Shown in pieces: positions 29,354 to 39,574 of a stretch of 64,000 bases of DNA. This DNA is from Polaribacter sp. (GTDB lineage Bacteria > Bacteroidota > Bacteroidia > Flavobacteriales > Flavobacteriaceae). The stretch covers positions 105,698 to 169,697 of the forward strand of contig JAQWGI010000017.1 in assembly GCA_029238315.1 (NCBI GenBank), read 5' to 3'. Within the stretch, counting starts at the first letter, position 1; each line of letters starts with the position of its first letter. The translations under genes and the position numbers were made by a program. The notes beneath the pieces were generated by a model, which was not told where the DNA came from, did no database searches, and saw nothing but the letters and a program-made list of their open reading frames with translations.

Positions 29354-29617
29354 ATGGGTGTGTTAAGAACAATCGCTGTTATTTTATTGGTATATTATGT
29401 ATTCAAATTTTTGGCAAAATTATTTGCGCCATTTTTGATAAAAAAGATGGTAAATAAGATGCAAGAAAAGGCTCAAAATCATCAACAAAGTCATCAGCAA
29501 ACGAATGTGAAAGTTGGAGAGACTGTGATCGATAAAAAACCTCAAAATAAAAATCAAAGCAATAATTCTGTTGGAGAATATGTTGAGTACGAAGAAGTAG
29601 AAGATGAGAATAAATAA
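29354..29617 (+). CDS. Small single-TM protein (recalled as DUF4834)
   Basis: TM helix, Q/N-rich linker, acidic GEYVEYEEV tail. TATTTTTG -7 element at 29320-29327. Confidence 0.75.
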   Translation: MGVLRTIAVILLVYYVFKFLAKLFAPFLIKKMVNKMQEKAQNHQQSHQQTNVKVGETVIDKKPQNKNQSNNSVGEYVEYEEVEDENK

Positions 29618-32009
29618 AACCTTTCCTTATATAGCTGCAATTTTAGTTTTTATCATTGCCTCTATATTATATTTTAATCCTGTTTTAAAAGGAGAAAAAA
29701 TTAAGCAAACAGACATTACTCAATTTAAAGGAATGTCTAAAGAAATTGTAGATTATAGATTGGAAAATGAAGAAGAGCCTTATTGGACTGGCGCTGCTTT
29801 TAGCGGAATGCCTGCCTATCAATTAAGTGCTTATTATCCAAATGACTTTATAAGGTCTTTAGATGCCACAATACGTTTTTTACCCAGACCAGCAGATTAT
29901 CTTTTCTTATACTTCTTAGGATTCTTTTTGCTTTTAGCAGCTTTAAAAGTAGAATGGAAATTAGCTGTTTTAGGCGCTTTGTCTTTTGGTTTTTCTACTT
30001 ATTTGATAATTATTTTTGGAGCAGGTCATAATGCAAAAGCACACGCTATTGCATATATGCCAATGGTTATGGCTGGTGTTTTATGGGTTTTTCAAAAGAA
30101 ATATTTACTCGGGTTTATTGTAACGGCAATTGCGATGGCATTAGAGATCCATGCTAACCATCCACAGATGACTTATTATCTTGGATTTATTTTGTTGATT
30201 CTTGGTGTTGTAAAACTACTAGAGGCAATTCAACAAAAAAGTTATTTGCCAATAGTAAAACAAGCAGTAGTTATTGTTTTTGCAATGATTTTAGGATTGG
30301 GTGTAAACTCTACGCGTTTAATGGCAATGAAAGAATATGCAGATTTTAGTACACGAGGAAAAACTGAATTAACAATTGAACCAAATGGATCTCCAAAACA
30401 AGTTACAGAAGGTTTATCTAAAGAATATATTACAGAATATAGTTACGGCTTAACGGAAACTTTTAATTTATTTATTCCACGTTTTATGGGTGGTGGAACG
30501 TATGAAAGTTTAGGGAATAATTCTAATTTTTACGAAACCTTAAAGTCAATTCCTCAAGTTGGAGCAGTGCAAGCTTCTCAGGCATCTAAGCAGGTTTTAA
30601 CGTATTGGGGAACTCAAACTTATATTGAAGCACCCGCTTACATAGGCGTAATTTTGGTGTTTTTATTTTTCTTAGGCATATTTTTAGTTAAAGGAACTAT
30701 TAAGAAATGGTTGGTTGCTGCAACTATTTTTTCTATTCTTTTAAGTTGGGGTAAAAACTTTCAATTTCTTACCGATTTTTTTATTGATTACATTCCGTTA
30801 TACAATAAGTTTAGAGCTGTTTCTTCAATACAGGTAATTGCAGAAATTTGCATTCCGCTATTAGGAATTTTAGCATTAAAAGAGTTTTTCTCTAAAGAAG
30901 TTTCTTTGGATGAAAAGAAAAATGCATTAAAAAAAGCATTTTATATTTTGGGAGGAATCTTAGTTTTTTTCTTGTTTTTTGGATCTAGTTTGTTTGCATT
31001 TGAAGGAATAAGAGATGCTAATTATCAACAAATACCTGGATTGTTAGATGCGCTAGTTTCAGATAGAAAAGCAATGTTATTTCAAGATAGTTTACGTTCT
31101 TTAATATTGGTTTTTATTGCAGCATTAATTTTATGGTTTTTCCTTAAAAACAAAGTAAATACAACAAAAGCAATACTTGGTTTTACAATTATTGTTTTAT
31201 TTGATTTAGTTTCGGTTAATTTAAAATACGTTAACAATCAATCTTTTGAAAAAGCAAGAAATATTGAAAAACCTTTTCAGTTAAGTGCAGTTGATAAGCA
31301 AATATTAAAAGACAAAAGTTACTATCGAGTAGCAAACATTGCTGCAGGTATACTCCAAGACGGAAGAACATCTTACTTCCATAACTCAATAGGCGGTTAT
31401 CATGCTGCAAAAATGGGACGTTATCAAGAATTGTTTGATTATCAAATTGCAAAAAATAATATGGAGGTTTTAAACATGTTAAATACAAAGTATTTTATTG
31501 TTCAGTCTTCAGAAGGTACTAATAGTGTACAAATGAATGCTGAGGTTAATGGGAATGTTTGGTTTGTTCAAAATTTAAAATTAGTATCATCTGCAGATGA
31601 AGAAATAATGGCTTTAGATCGCTTAAAAACAAAAAAGGAGGCTGTTATTGATGTTCGTAAGTTTCAACTTCAAAATAATTTTGAGAAAGATTCTTTGGCA
31701 ACAATCAAATTAACAAAACATAACGTTACATCATTATCTTATGAATCTAATACAGTAAAAAAACAATTTGCAGTATTTTCTGAAATCTATTATAAAGATG
31801 GATGGAACGCTTACATTGATGGTCAATTAACTCCACATTACCGTGTAAATTACGTGCTACGAGGAATGGAAATTCCGAAAGGAAAACACACCATTGAGTT
31901 TAGGTTTGAACCTACTATAATTTCAAAAGGTAACACAATTACCTTAATTTCTTATTTTATGTTATTGGTTATTCCGGTTGGATGGTTTTTTTACAAAAAG
32001 AAAAAATAA
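29604..32009 (+). CDS. YfhO-family GT-C-fold membrane glycosyltransferase
   Basis: About 13 TMs, first external loop with Asp (QTDITQ), and a C-terminal soluble domain with SEIYYKDGWNAYIDG...VNYVLRGMEIPKGKHTIEFRF. Confidence 0.88.
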   Translation: MRINKTFPYIAAILVFIIASILYFNPVLKGEKIKQTDITQFKGMSKEIVDYRLENEEEPYWTGAAFSGMPAYQLSAYYPNDFIRSLDATIRFLPRPADYLFLYFLGFFLLLAALKVEWKLAVLGALSFGFSTYLIIIFGAGHNAKAHAIAYMPMVMAGVLWVFQKKYLLGFIVTAIAMALEIHANHPQMTYYLGFILLILGVVKLLEAIQQKSYLPIVKQAVVIVFAMILGLGVNSTRLMAMKEYADFSTRGKTELTIEPNGSPKQVTEGLSKEYITEYSYGLTETFNLFIPRFMGGGTYESLGNNSNFYETLKSIPQVGAVQASQASKQVLTYWGTQTYIEAPAYIGVILVFLFFLGIFLVKGTIKKWLVAATIFSILLSWGKNFQFLTDFFIDYIPLYNKFRAVSSIQVIAEICIPLLGILALKEFFSKEVSLDEKKNALKKAFYILGGILVFFLFFGSSLFAFEGIRDANYQQIPGLLDALVSDRKAMLFQDSLRSLILVFIAALILWFFLKNKVNTTKAILGFTIIVLFDLVSVNLKYVNNQSFEKARNIEKPFQLSAVDKQILKDKSYYRVANIAAGILQDGRTSYFHNSIGGYHAAKMGRYQELFDYQIAKNNMEVLNMLNTKYFIVQSSEGTNSVQMNAEVNGNVWFVQNLKLVSSADEEIMALDRLKTKKEAVIDVRKFQLQNNFEKDSLATIKLTKHNVTSLSYESNTVKKQFAVFSEIYYKDGWNAYIDGQLTPHYRVNYVLRGMEIPKGKHTIEFRFEPTIISKGNTITLISYFMLLVIPVGWFFYKKKK

Positions 32010-32018
32010 ATTTACTTT

Positions 32019-33242
32019 ATGAATATTGGAATGTTGTTAAACGGAAATTATCCGGCAGATATTAGAGTTCGTAAAGAAGCAGAATCTCTCGTAGAAAACA
32101 ATCATGCTGTTTTTGTATTGTGCAAAAGAAATCCAAATGAAAAAGTATATGAAGTTGTTAATGGTGTTCAAGTTATTCGTAAAATAGCATATAAAAATTT
32201 ATCACATGAAGGTATAGTAGATGTAATTGCTTCTGTGAGTTTTATGCATCCTTTTTTTAAAAAAGAATTACCTTATTTTATCAAGGAGAATAAAATTGAG
32301 GTATTGCATGTTCATGATTTACCATTGGCTAAAACGGCCTTCTTAGCAGCAAGAAAATATCATTTAAAAACAGTATTAGATTTGCACGAGAATTATCCGG
32401 CAGCATTAATGACATGGTTTGCTTGGCGAAAAAACCCTATAATTAGATTAAAGAACAAATTGTTCTTTAATTATAATCGTTGGAAAACATACGAAGCTAG
32501 AATTCTTCAAAAATTTGATGTTATTATTGCTGTTGTTGATGAAATGAAGCAGCGTTTAATTGAGCAGCATCAAGTTTCAGGACATAAAATTATCATTGTG
32601 CCTAACTCTGAAAAGAAAACATTTGTAAATAATTTTGACACCTCAGTTGCTAGTTATTTCTCAGGGTTAGAAAACAAATTTATCATTTCATATGTTGGTG
32701 GTTTTGGGCCTCACAGAGGTTTGCATACCGCAATTTTAGGGATGAAAAATATTGCTAGAAAAATCCCGAATGCATTACTTGTTTTGGTGGGTCCGGCAAA
32801 TAAAGATGTTAGAAATCATTTACAAAATTTAGTAAATCAAAATAACTTACAAGATTTTGTAACGATTAAAGGAAGTGAACCTTTTACAAGTGTGGTAAAT
32901 ATTATGAATAATTCTTCTATAAACATCATTCCGCACATTTCAAATGAACATACAGAGAGTGCCGTTCCACATAAGTTTTTTCAGATATTATTATCTGGAA
33001 AGCCATTGTTAGTGTCTGATTGCGCTCCAATGAAAAGGTTGGTCAATCAATTTAACATTGGTTCTTGTTTTGAGTCAGAAAACCCTGAAAGTTTTGCAAA
33101 TTCTGTTGCAGCCATTTATTCAGATTATGATAGTGCGCTTCAGAAGTCAAAAAAAGGGAATGATGTATCTTTAAATGGAGAGTTAAACTGGGAGTTTACT
33201 TCAAAAAATTTGATCAAATTATATGATAATTTAAAGAATTGA
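32019..33242 (+). CDS. GT4-family glycosyltransferase
   Basis: GT-B fold: D-x-R-V-x-K-E-A start, LHVHD, DLHE, YVGG, PHKFFQ. Confidence 0.85.
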   Translation: MNIGMLLNGNYPADIRVRKEAESLVENNHAVFVLCKRNPNEKVYEVVNGVQVIRKIAYKNLSHEGIVDVIASVSFMHPFFKKELPYFIKENKIEVLHVHDLPLAKTAFLAARKYHLKTVLDLHENYPAALMTWFAWRKNPIIRLKNKLFFNYNRWKTYEARILQKFDVIIAVVDEMKQRLIEQHQVSGHKIIIVPNSEKKTFVNNFDTSVASYFSGLENKFIISYVGGFGPHRGLHTAILGMKNIARKIPNALLVLVGPANKDVRNHLQNLVNQNNLQDFVTIKGSEPFTSVVNIMNNSSINIIPHISNEHTESAVPHKFFQILLSGKPLLVSDCAPMKRLVNQFNIGSCFESENPESFANSVAAIYSDYDSALQKSKKGNDVSLNGELNWEFTSKNLIKLYDNLKN

Positions 33243-34513
33243 AAGTATTAATTGTAACATATTATTGGCCGCCCTCTGGCGGATCTGGCGTACAGCGCTG
33301 GTTGAAATTTGTGAAATACTTGCAAGATTTTGGTATTGAGCCAATTGTTTATACAGTAGCTCAGCCAAAATACCCAATCTTAGATACCTCTTTAGAGAAA
33401 GAAATTCCAGGAAATATTACAATTTTGAAACAATCTATTTTGGAGCCATCAACTATTTTTTCTTTATTTACAAAAGGAAAAACGCAACAAGCGGCTGGTT
33501 TTTTAAATCCGAATCCAACATTTTTTGGAAGAGTAATTCAATACATAAGAGCAAATTACTTTATTCCGGACGCAAGAAAGTATTGGGTTCAGCCGTCTGT
33601 AAAGTATTTGAAAAAATATTTAAAAGCACATCCCGTAGATGCAGTTATTACTTCTGGTCCGCCACACAGTTTACATTTAATTGGTTTAGCGTTAAAGAAC
33701 GCTATTGATGTAAAATGGATTTCTGACTTTAGAGATCCTTGGACAGAAATAGACTATTTTGAACAATTGCCTTTAACAAAAAAATCAATTCAAATTCATC
33801 AAAAACTAGAGCAAGAAGTGCTTGAAAAATCAGATACTGTTTTGGTTGTTGGAAAAACCATGAAAGATGGTTTTAAGAACTTTATCAATAAAATCCAGAT
33901 AGTAACCAATGGTTTTGATACAGAAGTAGATTCTTTAGAGAATACGTTAGATACCAAGTTTACAATTACACATGTTGGATTAATGAATGCAGATAGAAAC
34001 CCAACTTTATTATGGAAAGTTATTTCAGAAATTGGTAAGGAAGACGCCGATTTTGCTGCAGATTGTCAGATTAACATTGTTGGTAAAATTGCTTTAGAGG
34101 TTCAAGGTGATTTAGAAAAATATAAAATCAGAAATATATTAGATATTGGGTATGTTTCGCATCAAGAAGTTAAAAAGCATCAACAGAAATCTCAGGTATT
34201 GCTATTGTCTGTTAATAAAGTAAAAAGTGCTAAAGGAATTATTACTGGCAAAATATTTGAGTATTTACAAGCAAAACGCCCTATCTTAGCTATTGGTCCA
34301 TCTGATGGAGATTTGGCAGAGATTATTTATGAAACAAATGCAGGAGTAATTGTAGATTTTGATGATGAAATAAATCTAAAAAAATCAATTTTAGAAATGT
34401 ATACTTCCTTTAAAAATGGAAGTTTACACTCAAATTCTAAAAATATAGAGCAGTATCATCGTAAGGCTTTAACTGAGCAACTTGCTAATATTATTAAAGA
34501 AACAGTTTTGTAA
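33239..34513 (+). CDS. GT4-like glycosyltransferase (TTG start, 4-nt overlap)
   Basis: YYWPPSGGSGVQRW, TSGPPHS, DFRDPW, TGKIFEY. Confidence 0.85.
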   Translation: MKVLIVTYYWPPSGGSGVQRWLKFVKYLQDFGIEPIVYTVAQPKYPILDTSLEKEIPGNITILKQSILEPSTIFSLFTKGKTQQAAGFLNPNPTFFGRVIQYIRANYFIPDARKYWVQPSVKYLKKYLKAHPVDAVITSGPPHSLHLIGLALKNAIDVKWISDFRDPWTEIDYFEQLPLTKKSIQIHQKLEQEVLEKSDTVLVVGKTMKDGFKNFINKIQIVTNGFDTEVDSLENTLDTKFTITHVGLMNADRNPTLLWKVISEIGKEDADFAADCQINIVGKIALEVQGDLEKYKIRNILDIGYVSHQEVKKHQQKSQVLLLSVNKVKSAKGIITGKIFEYLQAKRPILAIGPSDGDLAEIIYETNAGVIVDFDDEINLKKSILEMYTSFKNGSLHSNSKNIEQYHRKALTEQLANIIKETVL

Positions 34514-34517
34514 TTTC

Positions 34518-35603
34518 ATGAAAAAAATAGTCACTATTTTAGGAGCAAGACCACAATTTGTAAAAGCTGCTGTTTTAAGCAGGGTAATCAAAGAACACCA
34601 TCAAGTTGAAGAAGTAATCATTCATACTGGGCAACATTTTGATGCCAATATGAGTGCCGTTTTTTTTGAAGAAATGGAAATACCAAAGCCCACTTATAAT
34701 TTAGCGATCAATAGCCTGGGACATGGAGCAATGACTGGTCAAATGTTAGAAAAAATTGAAACTATTCTTATCAAAGAAAAACCTGAAGCTGTTGTGGTTT
34801 ATGGAGATACTAATTCTACAGTTGCAGGATCATTAGCAGCAAAAAAACTACATATAAAGGTTATTCATATAGAAGCTGGCTTACGTTCTTTTAACATGAA
34901 AATGCCAGAAGAGGTAAATAGGATTTTAACAGACAGAATTTCTGATTTATTATGTTGCCCAACAGAAACAGCTATCAAAAATTTAAGAAATGAAGGTTAT
35001 GAAAACTTGCCAATCAAGATGGAAAGAACTGGTGATATTATGAAAGATGCTGTTGCATTTTATAGTAAAACATCAGCTGATAAATCATCAATAATTTCTG
35101 ATTTAAATTTAAAAGAAAACAAATTTGTTTTGGCAACCATTCATCGACAAGAAAACACCGATGATGTACATAAATTAAAATCGATTTTTGCTGCTTTAGA
35201 AGAAATTAATTCAGCATGTAAAGTGGTTTTGCCATTGCATCCAAGAACAAAAAAAATCTTAGAGCAACAGAGTATTCAACCAAATATTACCTTGATTAAT
35301 CCTGTTGGATATTTTGCCATGTTAGAGTTGTTAAAAAACTGTAAAATGGTGATTTCTGATAGTGGCGGATTGCAAAAAGAAGCATTTTTTAATAAAAAAT
35401 ATTGCATTATTGCAAGAGAAGAAACAGAATGGATTGAATTGGTAGAAAACGGTTTTGCAGAAATTGTGGGTAGTAATCAATCTAAAATAGTAAATGCTTT
35501 TAATAAGTATAAAACAGCAACAATAGATTTCAATATTGAATTGTATGGAAATCAAGTTGGAGAAAGTATTCATCAATCAATTGTAGCATTATTAACTAAA
35601 TAA
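34518..35603 (+). CDS. wecB: Non-hydrolysing UDP-GlcNAc 2-epimerase
   Basis: GARPQFVK, HTGQH, GDTNST, HIEAGLRS, DSGGLQKEA. Start moved to ATG 34518. Confidence 0.93.
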   Translation: MKKIVTILGARPQFVKAAVLSRVIKEHHQVEEVIIHTGQHFDANMSAVFFEEMEIPKPTYNLAINSLGHGAMTGQMLEKIETILIKEKPEAVVVYGDTNSTVAGSLAAKKLHIKVIHIEAGLRSFNMKMPEEVNRILTDRISDLLCCPTETAIKNLRNEGYENLPIKMERTGDIMKDAVAFYSKTSADKSSIISDLNLKENKFVLATIHRQENTDDVHKLKSIFAALEEINSACKVVLPLHPRTKKILEQQSIQPNITLINPVGYFAMLELLKNCKMVISDSGGLQKEAFFNKKYCIIAREETEWIELVENGFAEIVGSNQSKIVNAFNKYKTATIDFNIELYGNQVGESIHQSIVALLTK

Positions 35604-35611
35604 TTTTTCTA

Positions 35612-37072
35612 TTGGGAGTTGTATTAAAACAATCATTTAAAAATACTATTGTTACTTTCGCGGCATTCGGAATTGGAGGTGTAAATGCGTTGTTTCTATA
35701 CACTAATTTTTTAACAGGAGAATATTATGGCTTAGTAACCTATTTACTGTCAACTGCAAATTTATTAATGCCTCTAACGGCTTTTGGTGTTCAGTATTCT
35801 ATTGTTAAATTCTTTTCGTCTTACACTTCAAAGATAGAAAGAGATAAGTTTTTAAGTGCTTCGTTATTATTTCCATTAATTATTGCCATACCTTTTGGTT
35901 TTATAGGAACTGTTTTTTATGAACAAATTAGTTCTTTTTTATCGATAAAAAATCCAATTATAAAAGATTTTACATGGGTTATTTATTTAGTAGCGATTGC
36001 AACTGCTTATTTTGAGATTTTTTACGCGTGGGCAAAAGTACAAATGCAATCTGTTTTTGGAAATATTTTAAAAGAAATGTTTTCTAGAATTGCTGTAACG
36101 ATTCTTTTGATGTTGGTTTTTTTAGAGGTAATTGATCAAGTTGAATTCATTTATTGCTTAACAGGAGCGTATTTTATTCGTGCTTTTGTAATGTTATTGT
36201 ATGCATTAAAATTATACACACCAAAGTTTACTTTTCAACTGCCAACTAATTATAAGGAAGTTTTTAAATACGCTTCCTATATTATTTTAGCAGGTTCTGC
36301 TGGGGCAATTTTGTTAGATATTGATAAGTTTATGATTCCGCAAAAAGAAGCAATTGCCTATACGGCTTATTATTCTGTTGGCGTTTATATTGCTTCTTTA
36401 TTAGAAGCTCCAGGAAGAGCAATGGCACAAATTATTCAGCCAATTACAGCAAAAGCATTGAATGAAGATAATGCAACAGAAATTTATAAATTATATAAAA
36501 GTACTTCTATAAATCTTTTATTAATCTGTGGGTTGTTTTTCTTGTTGATCAACCTAAATATAGATCAAGGATATTTATTGATTGATGAAAAATATTCGCA
36601 AGGAGTTTGGGTGGTGTTTATGATTTCTATTGCTAAATTATACACCATGGCTTTAGGTAACAACGGAGCAATTATATCTAATTCTAAGCACTATAAAATA
36701 CTGTTGCCCTATGCAATTGCAATGGCATTAGCTGTGATATTTTTAAATAATTGGTTGATTTCTTTATATCGAATGAATGGCGCAGCTTTATCTACTTTAA
36801 TTGTTTTATTGTTTTTTAATACTGTTAAGATTTGGTATGTAAAAAAGAGATTTAACATTTACCCTTTTACTAGAAAAACGGTTTATCTATTATTGATTTT
36901 AACTGCAGTTTACAGTATGTTTTTCTTTTGGAATTTTAATTTGCATCCAATTTTAAATATTGTTTTAAAAGGAGCTTTAATATCTGTTAGTTATTTGATT
37001 CTTGTTTATAAATTGAATATATCTTCAGATATAAATACTATTATCAATAAGTTTATAAAAAGCAATCAATAG
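35612..37072 (+). CDS. Wzx-like oligosaccharide flippase (MOP superfamily)
   Basis: About 14 TMs, L-x-x-x-x-YG early motif, DIDKFMI, and position in a glycan locus. TTG start. Confidence 0.85.
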   Translation: MGVVLKQSFKNTIVTFAAFGIGGVNALFLYTNFLTGEYYGLVTYLLSTANLLMPLTAFGVQYSIVKFFSSYTSKIERDKFLSASLLFPLIIAIPFGFIGTVFYEQISSFLSIKNPIIKDFTWVIYLVAIATAYFEIFYAWAKVQMQSVFGNILKEMFSRIAVTILLMLVFLEVIDQVEFIYCLTGAYFIRAFVMLLYALKLYTPKFTFQLPTNYKEVFKYASYIILAGSAGAILLDIDKFMIPQKEAIAYTAYYSVGVYIASLLEAPGRAMAQIIQPITAKALNEDNATEIYKLYKSTSINLLLICGLFFLLINLNIDQGYLLIDEKYSQGVWVVFMISIAKLYTMALGNNGAIISNSKHYKILLPYAIAMALAVIFLNNWLISLYRMNGAALSTLIVLLFFNTVKIWYVKKRFNIYPFTRKTVYLLLILTAVYSMFFFWNFNLHPILNIVLKGALISVSYLILVYKLNISSDINTIINKFIKSNQ

Positions 37073-37361
37073 TATCTGCGAGAATGTGTAGTAGCAATCC
37101 AATTCCTAATACTCTCGTTTTTTTCCAACTTAATAAAGAGAAATAAATAGCAATAGCATAATAACTGTGTAACGGATGAAAATTAACGCTACATCTATTT
37201 GGATCAAAAATTGGGGTTGCTAATAAATGATCTAAATCGATCAACATTGTTGCAATAAAAACAAGATATACTTTCTTCCAGTTTTTTTTAAAAAAAGTTA
37301 AAGCTACAAGTGCAGGAACAATAAAATGAAAGCCGTAATGTATTAAAAACTTTAAATCCAT
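37053..37361 (-). CDS. Small membrane protein with H/D metal-like motifs (recalled as DUF6122)
   Basis: HYGFH, DLDHL, FHPLH, LHILAD. YdjM-like metal-dependent hydrolase pattern. Confidence 0.75.
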   Translation of the reverse strand: MDLKFLIHYGFHFIVPALVALTFFKKNWKKVYLVFIATMLIDLDHLLATPIFDPNRCSVNFHPLHSYYAIAIYFSLLSWKKTRVLGIGLLLHILADTIDCFL

Positions 37362-37362
37362 T

Positions 37363-37959
37363 TTATTCTAAAAAGCTAATTGCATTTGGACCCTCCATAA
37401 AAAGTAAATCCAATATTGATAAATTTTTTAAATAACCATATTTATCATCAAACATTTGAATATAGCTGTCAAATTTATAGTTGTGTTTTCGTTTAGCATT
37501 TGCTAAAGAACGATAATCGTTTTCTGTAGAAACATCGTATTCTGTTGTTTTACTAAATTGTTGATTGATTTGTATTGCGTCGGTAATGAACAAGTACGTA
37601 TCTATATTTACATCTAATAAATAGGTGTATTCTTTTTTGAAAATCGATAATATATCATCTTGGTAAAACTCAAAAAAAGGCGAGTTTCGATACGCAATTT
37701 GTATCGATTTTAAATGTTGTTTCTGCCAAGAGTTAGTATTGTCTACCAAAGTGTCTTTAGTTTTTCTTTTAGAAGATTTAGAAGTATGTTTTACGGGAAT
37801 ATTTAATAATTGTTTTCCGTTTGGCCCATAAATATAGCAACGATTTCTATAGGTTTGTTTTTGATAGTTGTCTTCTGTCTCAAAAAGTATTACTTCTGAA
37901 TTTACAATAGCTTTATATTGTGAAATAGGAGAGAAGTAAGTTGGTAAAAACAAAGCCAT
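37363..37959 (-). CDS. WbqC-like protein
   Basis: PTYFSP, YQKQTYRNR, L-x-I-P-V, WQKQHLKSIQIAYRNSPFF, LSILDLLFMEGP. Start moved to ATG 37959. Confidence 0.88.
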   Translation of the reverse strand: MALFLPTYFSPISQYKAIVNSEVILFETEDNYQKQTYRNRCYIYGPNGKQLLNIPVKHTSKSSKRKTKDTLVDNTNSWQKQHLKSIQIAYRNSPFFEFYQDDILSIFKKEYTYLLDVNIDTYLFITDAIQINQQFSKTTEYDVSTENDYRSLANAKRKHNYKFDSYIQMFDDKYGYLKNLSILDLLFMEGPNAISFLE

Positions 37960-37960
37960 T

Positions 37961-39574
37961 TTATTTGGTTTCTTTTTTCTTTTTACGGTAATAATTAACT
38001 GCAAAATAACCCATTAATAAGATCAAGAAAACATTAAAATAGGATCTTGGCTCTCCGTCACCACCAACAGTGGTAAACATTCTGTCCCAACGAATTGAAG
38101 AAAATTTAGCGAATCCTTTAGCGTCTGGATCCCAACTTAACCAAATAAATACTGGTTTTCCAACTACATGATCAAACGGAACATAACCCCAAGAACGAGC
38201 GTCTAAAGAGTTTTGCCTGTTGTCTCCCATCATCCAATAATAATCTTGTTTAAATGTATAAGAAGTCGCTTTTTTACCATTTAGATAATAATCATTACCT
38301 ACAATTGATAAGTTATTGTGCTCGTATCTTCTGATAACTTGTTCGTAAAAAGGCATTGATTTTTCGTTTAACTCAACCGTTTCTCCTTTTTTAGGAATGT
38401 AAATGGGGCCGTAATTATCATTCGTCCATAAATAATGAGGACTATGCGGAAATAAATCTTTATTAAAAGTGCCTTTTGGTTCTATATTTTTTATAACACT
38501 TTTTACTATCGGATTGTTTTTTATCAATGCAGCTTCATCATCTGTTAAATTTAAAATAAACTTTCCGTTTCTAAAACCGTATTCTCTAATATTGTATCTT
38601 TTTGATGCGCCTTGACTAAATTGCTTTCCGCCAGTATCAACCGTAAAAAAATATTGCGGTTTTGCCCTGTCTGGCAATACCGTTCTTTTTCCGTTGATAT
38701 ATACATAACCATCTCTTACTTCTAAAGAGTCTCCCGGAATACCAACTGCACGTTTTACATAATTGGTTCTTTTATCTAGTGGTTTGTAGGTAAATTTCCC
38801 GGATGTATCTCCCCACATTAAATTTAAAGAATCGGCCGGCCAACTAAAAACTACAATGTCGTTTCGCTTAATTTTCTGAATTCCCGGCAATCGCATGTAT
38901 GGTAATGCCAGTTTATTTAACCAAGAATCTTGATCTTTAGAGTCTGAAACATAGGATTTAAATGAAGAAGTTAAATTCATTCCTGTTAAAGGAATTGGAA
39001 TAGCAGGAATTGTATCATGAACCATTGGAGCAGAAACTGCAGACATTGGAACTCTTGCTCCATAATGGAATTTACTTACAAATAAGAAATCACCAACGTA
39101 CAATGTTTTTTCTAATGATGAAGACGGAATTGTATAGGGTTGCATAAAATAAGTATGTACTAAAGTGGCGGCAATAATTGCAAATGCAACTGAGCTGATC
39201 CATTCTCCAAGCGCACTTCTTGGGTCTAAACTTCTGTCTTTTACATAATTGTTTTTAGAAAAATAATTGATAAAAAATAAATAAAAACCCAATGTTGCTA
39301 CAGCTAAAATTGTGTCTAATTTTTTATGATGACTATAACTTCTACACGTTTCTATCCAAATAATTGGAAACATTAATAGATTTATAATTGGAATAAACAA
39401 TAAGATTGTCCACCATTTTGGGCGATTGATAATTTGCATCAATACAATTGCGTTGTATATAGGTACAATTGCTTCCCAAGCTTTTCTGCCAGCTTTTATA
39501 TATAATTTCCAAGTAGCTAAAAAGTGAATTACTTGTATTGTTATGAAGAATAAAAACCACTCTGTAAATGTCAT
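37961..39574 (-). CDS. lepB: Signal peptidase I with an extra N-terminal membrane domain (DUF5684-like)
   Basis: Catalytic Ser PSSSLEKTL, Lys YVKRAVG, GDNRQNSLDARSWG. Confidence 0.93.
   Translation of the reverse strand: MTFTEWFLFFITIQVIHFLATWKLYIKAGRKAWEAIVPIYNAIVLMQIINRPKWWTILLFIPIINLLMFPIIWIETCRSYSHHKKLDTILAVATLGFYLFFINYFSKNNYVKDRSLDPRSALGEWISSVAFAIIAATLVHTYFMQPYTIPSSSLEKTLYVGDFLFVSKFHYGARVPMSAVSAPMVHDTIPAIPIPLTGMNLTSSFKSYVSDSKDQDSWLNKLALPYMRLPGIQKIKRNDIVVFSWPADSLNLMWGDTSGKFTYKPLDKRTNYVKRAVGIPGDSLEVRDGYVYINGKRTVLPDRAKPQYFFTVDTGGKQFSQGASKRYNIREYGFRNGKFILNLTDDEAALIKNNPIVKSVIKNIEPKGTFNKDLFPHSPHYLWTNDNYGPIYIPKKGETVELNEKSMPFYEQVIRRYEHNNLSIVGNDYYLNGKKATSYTFKQDYYWMMGDNRQNSLDARSWGYVPFDHVVGKPVFIWLSWDPDAKGFAKFSSIRWDRMFTTVGGDGEPRSYFNVFLILLMGYFAVNYYRKKKKETK

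Follow-up and report, generated by a model that had tools for sequence, protein, structure and literature searches.

We analysed a window of 64,000 nucleotides (nt) of a Polaribacter sp. genome (assembly GCA_029238315.1, contig JAQWGI010000017.1, positions 105,698 to 169,697), which contains a glycan operon built around a YfhO-family glycosyltransferase. Six open reading frames (ORFs), all on the plus strand, occupy positions 29354-37072 of this window. Families were assigned using Pfam and NCBIfam profile scores, and the junctions between the genes were read from the DNA. The six genes are:

29354..29617, plus strand: DUF4834 small membrane protein, 87 amino acids (aa) (PF16118, 33.4 bits)
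29604..32009, plus strand: YfhO-family GT-C glycosyltransferase, 801 aa (PF09586, 41.9 bits; cut-off 28.5)
32019..33242, plus strand: GT4a, a cytoplasmic GT4 (GT-B) glycosyltransferase, 407 aa (Glycos_transf_1, 61 bits; Glyco_transf_4, 60.6 bits)
33239..34513, plus strand: GT4b, a retaining-type GT4 glycosyltransferase, 424 aa (weak Pfam GT4 matches and a structural model)
34518..35603, plus strand: WecB, a non-hydrolysing UDP-GlcNAc 2-epimerase (TIGR00236, 284.8 bits; equivalog cut-off 210.15)
35612..37072, plus strand: Wzx-type (MOP superfamily) flippase for lipid-linked oligosaccharides, 486 aa (PF01943, 35.3 bits; cut-off 28.2)

The genes are tightly packed. The DUF4834 gene and yfhO overlap by 14 nt, a 9-nt gap separates yfhO from GT4a, GT4a and GT4b overlap by 4 nt (TTGA), and gaps of 4 and 8 nt precede WecB and wzx, respectively. 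The 4-nt gap holds for a WecB start at ATG 34518; the ORF list begins this frame at an earlier TTG (34482). These junctions suggest translational coupling. A first-pass annotation, made from the DNA letters alone, had described the same packed operon, and all of its ORFs and junctions were confirmed. It was also correct that the six genes include no Wzy, Wzz, WaaL, or initiating transferase; such genes are located in a separate cluster on contig 7. In a scan of the whole genome, the polytopic Wzx protein (~480 aa) scored 38.2 bits against PF01943. A scan for sigma-70 promoters and terminators, which does not cover Bacteroidota promoters, returned 45 sites versus 46 expected from shuffles.

We compared the operon to 80 loci from close relatives (Polaribacter, Tenacibaculum, and Lutibacter). 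The order DUF4834-YfhO-(AraC-family, opposite strand)-(small methyltransferase)-GT4a-GT4b-(WecB)-Wzx, where genes in brackets are optional, was found in 80/80 loci, and the arrangement is therefore not due to chance. True variation is limited to alleles of GT4a and to whether WecB and the methyltransferase are present. The possibility of a hypervariable glycosyltransferase cassette between YfhO and GT4b was rejected after clustering, which revealed that the spacing mostly reflects the AraC-family insertion and the optional small methyltransferase. In 33/80 relatives, the operon is split between yfhO and GT4a by the AraC-family regulator (~565 aa), which is encoded on the opposite strand (for example, L005:10400-12079). 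One locus with full Polaribacter-type synteny and 57-82% protein identity (L080, CAXMOR010000050.1) carries the label "uncultured Acidimicrobiia bacterium", but this contig probably comes from a member of the Flavobacteriaceae and was mis-binned.

In ten other Flavobacteriaceae genera, YfhO was accompanied by GT4b in every case, and eight of the ten contained the module DUF4834-YfhO-GT4b-Wzx with Wzx as the next gene. Chryseobacterium also has YfhO with GT4b. A DUF4834-like ORF is located directly upstream of yfhO in all 80 close loci, in these ten genera, in one Weeksellaceae locus, and in one Bacteroidales locus. GT4a was not found in most of the other Flavobacteriaceae genera; it was seen in one locus of another order (L102), together with the methyltransferase. 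GT4a, WecB, and the methyltransferase are additions of the Polaribacter/Tenacibaculum clade.

An even sample of 301 Bacteroidota genomes was used to follow the genes through the phylum, with a threshold of E<=1e-40 for GT4b. YfhO homologues were present in 297 of these genomes, mostly as a single copy, and GT4b in 188. YfhO and GT4b were counted as a pair if their listed coordinates were <=5 kb apart. They formed a pair in 23/23 Flavobacteriaceae, 3/3 Weeksellaceae, 3/14 genomes from other Bacteroidia orders, and 19/36 genomes from other classes for which both positions were listed (families f28, f19, f23, and f27). By chance, such adjacency would be expected in well under 1% of cases in a genome of 3-5 Mb. 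Homologues of the operon's Wzx are located <=15 kb from YfhO in at least eight genomes from other orders or classes (families f11 and f6, four Chitinophagaceae, and one from f27), and in 3/19 Bacteroidales loci. Most of the sampled Chitinophagaceae lack GT4b and this Wzx. Given the adjacency across classes, YfhO and GT4b represent an ancient gene pair, with Wzx as a frequent third member. The first-pass annotation had asked which genes are core to the locus; the survey yields YfhO-GT4b across classes, Wzx frequently, and DUF4834 in the Flavobacteriales, with GT4a and WecB variable.

The match of YfhO to PF09586 is confined to its C-terminal 90 residues (residues 691-780 on profile positions 746-835). 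The orthologues from Barnesiella and Edaphocola score 35.1 and 31.0 bits, and Bacteroidota YfhO proteins clear the gathering cut-off by just 3-13 bits (31-42 versus 28.5) through the C-terminal region alone. A profile search against PDB sequences returned no meaningful relative with a solved structure, so that only the fold search was informative. An AlphaFold2 model, based on an alignment of 27 sequences from across the class, is confident (predicted local distance difference test score, pLDDT, 88.6; predicted template modelling score, pTM, 0.85). The model has multiple transmembrane (TM) helices up to about residue 542, a periplasmic beta-sandwich (~545-770, with beta-rich structure over 548-768), and a C-terminal TM helix (771-800), which is the GT-C architecture of a multi-TM core, a large extracytoplasmic C-terminal domain, and a last TM helix. 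All confident Foldseek matches were to GT-C_A enzymes: ArnT (5f15, the top match), AftD, yeast and human STT3, PglB, and Pmt4 (rank 14). The TM-scores of these matches are 0.3-0.4, at 9-13% identity. YfhO has the overall GT-C fold and an acidic residue at the first periplasmic loop helix in common with PglB/STT3, the protein O-mannosyltransferases (PMT), and ArnT, whereas the C-terminal beta-sandwich and the terminal TM helix are specific to YfhO.

The catalytic acid of GT-C enzymes is usually located at the start of the first periplasmic loop helix. In the YfhO model, this position, which follows TM helix 1, is taken by Asp37, the D of a QTD motif, and Asp37 is invariant in 27/27 YfhO sequences from several orders. 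Judged by the model, Asp37 corresponds to the conserved loop-1 acidic residue of GT-C_A enzymes and is a putative catalytic residue. Both the GT-C assignment and the loop-1 Asp had been predicted in the first-pass annotation, and both stand.

ArnT, AftD, and PMT use monosaccharides linked to a polyprenyl monophosphate, and STT3 and PglB use oligosaccharides linked to a pyrophosphate; the modelled fold by itself would leave the type of donor used by YfhO unsettled. The partner genes are more informative. Three-component YfhO systems combine YfhO with a GT2 enzyme and a GtrA-family flippase. In the source genome (2.24 Mb, 96% complete, with a single copy of YfhO), there was no match to the GtrA family (PF04138), nor was there one in four of six other Flavobacteriales genomes checked. 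The operon partners of YfhO are instead two GT4 enzymes, WecB, and Wzx; an unlinked GT2 polyprenol-phosphate sugar synthase was not specifically searched for. This partnership had been noted for the one locus, and its linkage is conserved far beyond the source genome. Because YfhO is consistently associated with a PglH-like GT4 and Wzx, and because GtrA is absent, we infer that its donor is probably an oligosaccharide and not a single sugar.

The remainder of the genome holds the genes for conventional polysaccharide synthesis elsewhere. The region C7:33324-46248 (contig 7) is a classical Wzx/Wzy-type polysaccharide cluster with a GT2, a WbaP-like phosphoglycosyl transferase (PGT), GT4s, two Wzy_C proteins, its own Wzx, RmlC/A/B, and a Wzz-like protein. 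Since the O-antigen-type genes form this separate cluster, the YfhO operon represents a pathway distinct from the O-antigen or capsule type. Wzy_C (PF04932), the family of PglL and WaaL, was matched at C7:37264-39777 and weakly on contig 25, with no match in the YfhO operon. The WbaP-type PGT (C7:34064-35419) is the only PGT of the genome other than MraY, which is also the sole PF00953 protein. The initiating enzyme of the YfhO pathway is unlinked and possibly shared with the contig-7 cluster. A second small pair of a GT4 and a MOP flippase (380 and 421 aa) is located at C3:5909-10458, with two unannotated genes (300 and 434 aa) converging on it; from its gene content, this pair may be another minimal module for a lipid-linked glycan.

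GT4b carries the N-terminal motif ITYYWPPxGGxGVQRW. Its AlphaFold2 model (pLDDT 90.6) matched MshA and PglH in Foldseek at ~2e-14, which confirms a GT-B/GT4 fold of the retaining type, and in a profile search its best PDB sequence match was PglH/WlaC (E=1e-5). PglH extends a glycan linked to undecaprenyl pyrophosphate. Across the phylum, GT4b is the most constant partner of YfhO. In other classes, some GT4b homologues occur in much longer open frames of 546-1004 aa (G247, G035, G022, G002/G007, and G223); their length suggests domain fusions, which might reveal a partner of GT4b. GT4a is less uniform. Related copies have either ~30% or 55-84% identity to the window copy (Polaribacter, Tenacibaculum, Lutibacter), and GT4a is a clade-specific, allelically variable member of the module.

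The first-pass annotation expected a glycan containing N-acetylmannosamine (ManNAc). WecB supplies UDP-ManNAc; however, it is missing from about half of the related loci, and ManNAc is thus optional in the module. One GT4b clade co-segregates with WecB (seven label changes on the tree versus 31 in shuffles; shared ancestry contributes to this difference), which fits a GT4b subtype that would use ManNAc. DUF4834 has a single TM helix at its N-terminus, followed by a Q/N-rich linker and, in the C-terminal part, the conserved acidic motif GEYVEYEEV. The motif is found as (G)EY(V/I)E(Y/F)EEV in the DUF4834 proteins of the window (29354-29617), L092, and L126, and is preceded by a low-complexity Q/N-rich linker in each. 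By the positive-inside rule, the acidic tail would be cytoplasmic, and it could serve as a docking site for a cytoplasmic partner.

Taken together, the gene set suggests assembly by cytoplasmic GT4 enzymes, flipping by Wzx, and periplasmic transfer by a GT-C enzyme, and this pathway logic is well supported. In the route that we infer, GT4b and GT4a would extend a short glycan on undecaprenyl (pyro)phosphate at the cytoplasmic face, with UDP-ManNAc supplied by WecB. An unlinked enzyme would start the glycan, for which the WbaP-type enzyme of the contig-7 cluster is the genome's only non-MraY candidate. Wzx would flip the lipid-linked glycan across the inner membrane, and YfhO, with Asp37 as the presumed catalytic residue, would transfer it to an acceptor at the periplasmic face. 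DUF4834, whose gene would be translationally coupled to yfhO, is probably an accessory subunit.

This system belongs to the YfhO/GT-C extracytoplasmic glycosylation systems, with GT4 and Wzx partners in diderms. It resembles CsbB/GtcA/YfhO (B. subtilis, Listeria), and GtrB/PgtC2 and PgfS/PgfM1 (streptococci), in having a central YfhO-family GT-C enzyme whose catalytic loop lies outside the membrane, and in the proposed route, in which the donor is made on a cytoplasmic polyprenol carrier and then flipped. It differs in that the three-component systems use GT2 and GtrA, whereas the operon encodes GT-B enzymes and a Wzx/MOP flippase. Furthermore, unlike the Firmicute hosts of YfhO, its host is a diderm without teichoic acids, and the Pfam similarity is confined to the C-terminal 90 residues. 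PglL/PglO and WaaL (Wzy_C) have the same job that is proposed for YfhO, the en bloc periplasmic transfer of a Wzx-flipped lipid-linked glycan, although their fold and family are unrelated. A waaL mutant of P. gingivalis retains O-glycosylation (PMC8729774).

What YfhO modifies is less certain. Protein O-glycosylation in Bacteroidota was described in 2009, and the enzyme that glycosylates hundreds of exported proteins has not been identified since. Our preferred reading, to which we assign a probability of about 0.5, is that the operon performs lipid-carrier-dependent periplasmic glycosylation, with YfhO acting in protein O-glycosylation. YfhO would be the missing transferase, either as the O-oligosaccharyltransferase (O-OTase) acting on Ser/Thr of D-(S/T)-hydrophobic sites or as a ligase joining a glycan to a protein-bound core. 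The enzyme is a testable candidate for this role.

The first-pass annotation had noted that the en bloc transferase was not firmly assigned, which agrees with a 2025 review that lists the OTase, the outer-glycan ligase, and the core-glycan flippase as undiscovered (PMC12871550). Its description of the system as undescribed stands in part. A bioRxiv preprint from July 2026 already predicts in silico that YfhO of Bacteroidota is the OTase (10.64898/2026.07.27.740950). The preprint bases its case on HHpred similarity to PMT, conservation, essentiality in Bacteroidales, and topology, and reports synteny only with sahH/luxS (10.64898/2026.07.27.740950). The linkage of YfhO with GT4b, Wzx, and DUF4834 appears to be new supporting evidence, and our literature search found no paper linking YfhO to the Flavobacteriia.

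Support for a protein acceptor comes from the neighbourhoods of YfhO. In other orders, the genes beside YfhO encode a DegT aminotransferase, GT2, GT4, an NAD-dependent epimerase/dehydratase, a GFO/IDH/MocA oxidoreductase, Wzx, a hexapeptide acetyltransferase, methyltransferases (including the TylF type and O-methyltransferases), WecB, and an AsnB-type amidotransferase. The protein O-glycosylation cluster of T. forsythia contains Wzx, GT-B Gtfs of 382-445 aa, MtfJOY, AsnB, WecC, and WecB (PMC6120980). Because the YfhO neighbourhoods resemble this repertoire throughout the phylum, protein O-glycosylation is the likeliest target, although this evidence is circumstantial. Methylated O-glycans containing N-acetylmannosaminuronic acid are known in Bacteroidota (PMC6120980, PMC8698959), and the repertoire fits them. 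YfhO-family enzymes in streptococci O-glycosylate Ser/Thr-rich regions of exported proteins (PMC11092751). In contrast, the candidate sequons QKDSTQ, KIDSLK, and TQDSIT, which the first-pass annotation cited from exported proteins of the window, carry no weight: the pattern D-[ST]-[AILVMT] occurs 2.5 times per 1000 aa and in 50% of the ORFs of the genome. Its enrichment in proteins with a signal-peptide-like or TM-like N-terminus, identified with a crude signal-peptide filter, is only ~1.13-fold.

A narrower version of the preferred reading takes DUF4834-YfhO-GT4b-Wzx as the core machinery of protein O-glycosylation in Bacteroidota. The conserved core glycan of the phylum is 2-O-Me-Rha-(1-3)-Man-O-Ser/Thr (PMC8698959). 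GT4b would add the second sugar of this deoxyhexose-hexose (dHex-Hex) core on the carrier, Wzx would be the core-glycan flippase, YfhO would be the O-OTase for D-(S/T)-hydrophobic sites and hence the first GT-C O-OTase to use a lipid-linked oligosaccharide, DUF4834 would be accessory, and GT4a, the methyltransferase, and WecB would extend the core in place in Polaribacter/Tenacibaculum. We regard this version as tentative, and it has distinctly less than even odds.

Several observations weigh against a role of YfhO in protein O-glycosylation. The donors of the YfhO enzymes characterised so far, and of the best structural matches (ArnT, AftD, PMT), are monosaccharides linked to a polyprenyl monophosphate and not pyrophosphate-linked oligosaccharides. 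ArnT, the best match, modifies lipid A, so that the acceptor may be a lipid. Neither GT4b (188/301 genomes) nor this Wzx is as widespread as YfhO, and so they cannot be obligatory partners for a core glycan conserved throughout the phylum, or its sole makers. This Wzx family also never adjoins metG, the hallmark of Bacteroides LFG loci (35 genomes, 19 Bacteroidales loci). Finally, P. gingivalis reportedly lacks YfhO (10.64898/2026.07.27.740950), yet its proteins carry the same dHex-Hex core at the same O-glycosylated motif (PMC8729774). If this absence is real, then YfhO cannot be the universal OTase or ligase; however, it may be a false negative, because the survey applied the gathering cut-off of PF09586, and Bacteroidota YfhO proteins exceed this value by a small margin.

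The alternative that fares best retains the same pathway logic but assumes a non-protein acceptor: YfhO would decorate lipopolysaccharide, at its lipid A, core, or O-antigen, or else a different glycolipid or polysaccharide of the envelope. We consider this alternative possible but unlikely. It parallels the action of ArnT, the top Foldseek match, on lipid A and that of Firmicute YfhO on teichoic acids, and the first YfhO enzymes to be characterised act on glycopolymers (PMC5836110, PMC7389260). A non-protein acceptor would also fit the patchy distribution of GT4b and Wzx, as well as O-glycosylation in P. gingivalis without a reported YfhO (10.64898/2026.07.27.740950; PMC8729774). On the other hand, the genome already has a separate and complete Wzx/Wzy/Wzz cluster for a conventional polysaccharide, and YfhO is near-universal and reported to be essential in Bacteroidales, which would be unusual for an optional decoration. 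The match between the YfhO neighbourhoods and known O-glycan clusters (PMC6120980) and the glycosylation of proteins by streptococcal YfhO enzymes (PMC11092751) also favour protein as the acceptor.

A distinct sub-case of the preferred reading is that YfhO is not the OTase, but a ligase that joins a Wzx-flipped outer glycan to the protein-bound Man/Rha core. The two-step model requires such an enzyme (PMC12871550, PMC8729774), and YfhO is found with Wzx, glycan-extending GT4s, a methyltransferase, and WecB, the gene types that provide the species-specific outer glycan in T. forsythia (PMC6120980). However, most Flavobacteriaceae genera have a single glycosyltransferase (GT4b) beside YfhO, which is too few for outer glycans of at least five sugars and would come nearer to the needs of a disaccharide core. 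The resemblance to protein O-mannosyltransferases of the PMT type (Foldseek rank 14; HHpred in the preprint) also favours protein itself as acceptor, and we consider the ligase improbable. Least probable by far is a classical three-component route, in which an unlinked GT2 provides an undecaprenyl-phosphate monosaccharide that is moved by a small flippase while GT4a, GT4b, WecB, and Wzx serve another pathway: it is the mode of all biochemically studied YfhO systems (PMC5836110, PMC7389260, PMC11092751), and the closest folds (ArnT, AftD, Pmt4) take monophosphate-linked single sugars, but the GtrA searches described above and the cross-class YfhO-GT4b adjacency, with junctions that suggest translational coupling, argue against a coincidental association.

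The O-glycan loci described previously, the LFG locus of B. fragilis and the 27-kb cluster of T. forsythia, are similar to the operon in that they encode Wzx and GT-B glycosyltransferases of ~400-445 aa. The T. forsythia cluster also contains WecB, methyltransferases, and AsnB-type modifiers (PMC6120980); genes of these types adjoin YfhO either in this operon or elsewhere in the phylum. The described loci contain no GT-C enzyme, whereas YfhO is located inside the locus here. LFG loci are characterised by metG-wzx and a GtfE/BF4306-type GT-A fucosyltransferase of ~30 kDa, and the YfhO operon has neither arrangement (PMC8698959). We rejected the idea that the operon is the counterpart, in Flavobacteriaceae, of the Bacteroides LFG locus: metG adjoined the Wzx homologue in 0/35 genomes and 0/19 Bacteroidales loci, and it is on contig 1 in the source genome. 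GT4b was likewise rejected as the LFG fucosyltransferase BF4306/GtfE, a family of ~30 kDa (about 255 aa) GT-A proteins with a DXD motif (PMC8698959), whereas GT4b is a 424-aa GT-B protein. No GT2/GT-A gene that could encode a terminal fucosyltransferase of the LFG type is present in the operon; no genome-wide search for the fucosyltransferase family was made.

The phylum concerned spans gut Bacteroides, oral pathogens, and marine and soil flavobacteria. The pairing of YfhO with GT4b across classes, the presence of Wzx across Flavobacteriaceae and recurrently elsewhere, and the coupling to DUF4834 in Flavobacteriales provide genomic support that is independent of the preprint and nominate GT4b, Wzx, and DUF4834 as three further candidate components. 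Because all parts are contained in one small operon, the Flavobacteriaceae provide a useful test bed. If YfhO does take a Wzx-flipped oligosaccharide, the reactions known for the YfhO/GT-C family would no longer be limited to the transfer of single sugars, and YfhO could also provide a sequon-specific O-glycosylation tool for glycoengineering.

The genes flanking the operon are housekeeping or unrelated genes. Upstream are a MetA-like outer membrane protein, a GNAT-domain protein, and RsmE; downstream, on the opposite strand, are DUF6122, WbqC-like, LepB, DapB, DUF5683, ParB, and ParA. The DUF6122 gene (37053-37361, minus strand; 102 aa, 161 bits) is convergent with the operon and shares 20 nt with the 3' end of wzx, and its position beside wzx is kept in most relatives of this Polaribacter. 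Members of the WbqC family are usually found in O-antigen clusters. In the stretch 37363-39574 (minus strand), the WbqC-like gene (PF08889) overlaps the start region of the gene for a signal peptidase I of 537 aa with an N-terminal DUF5684 domain; here, the WbqC-like gene lies beside lepB, opposite a glycan operon.

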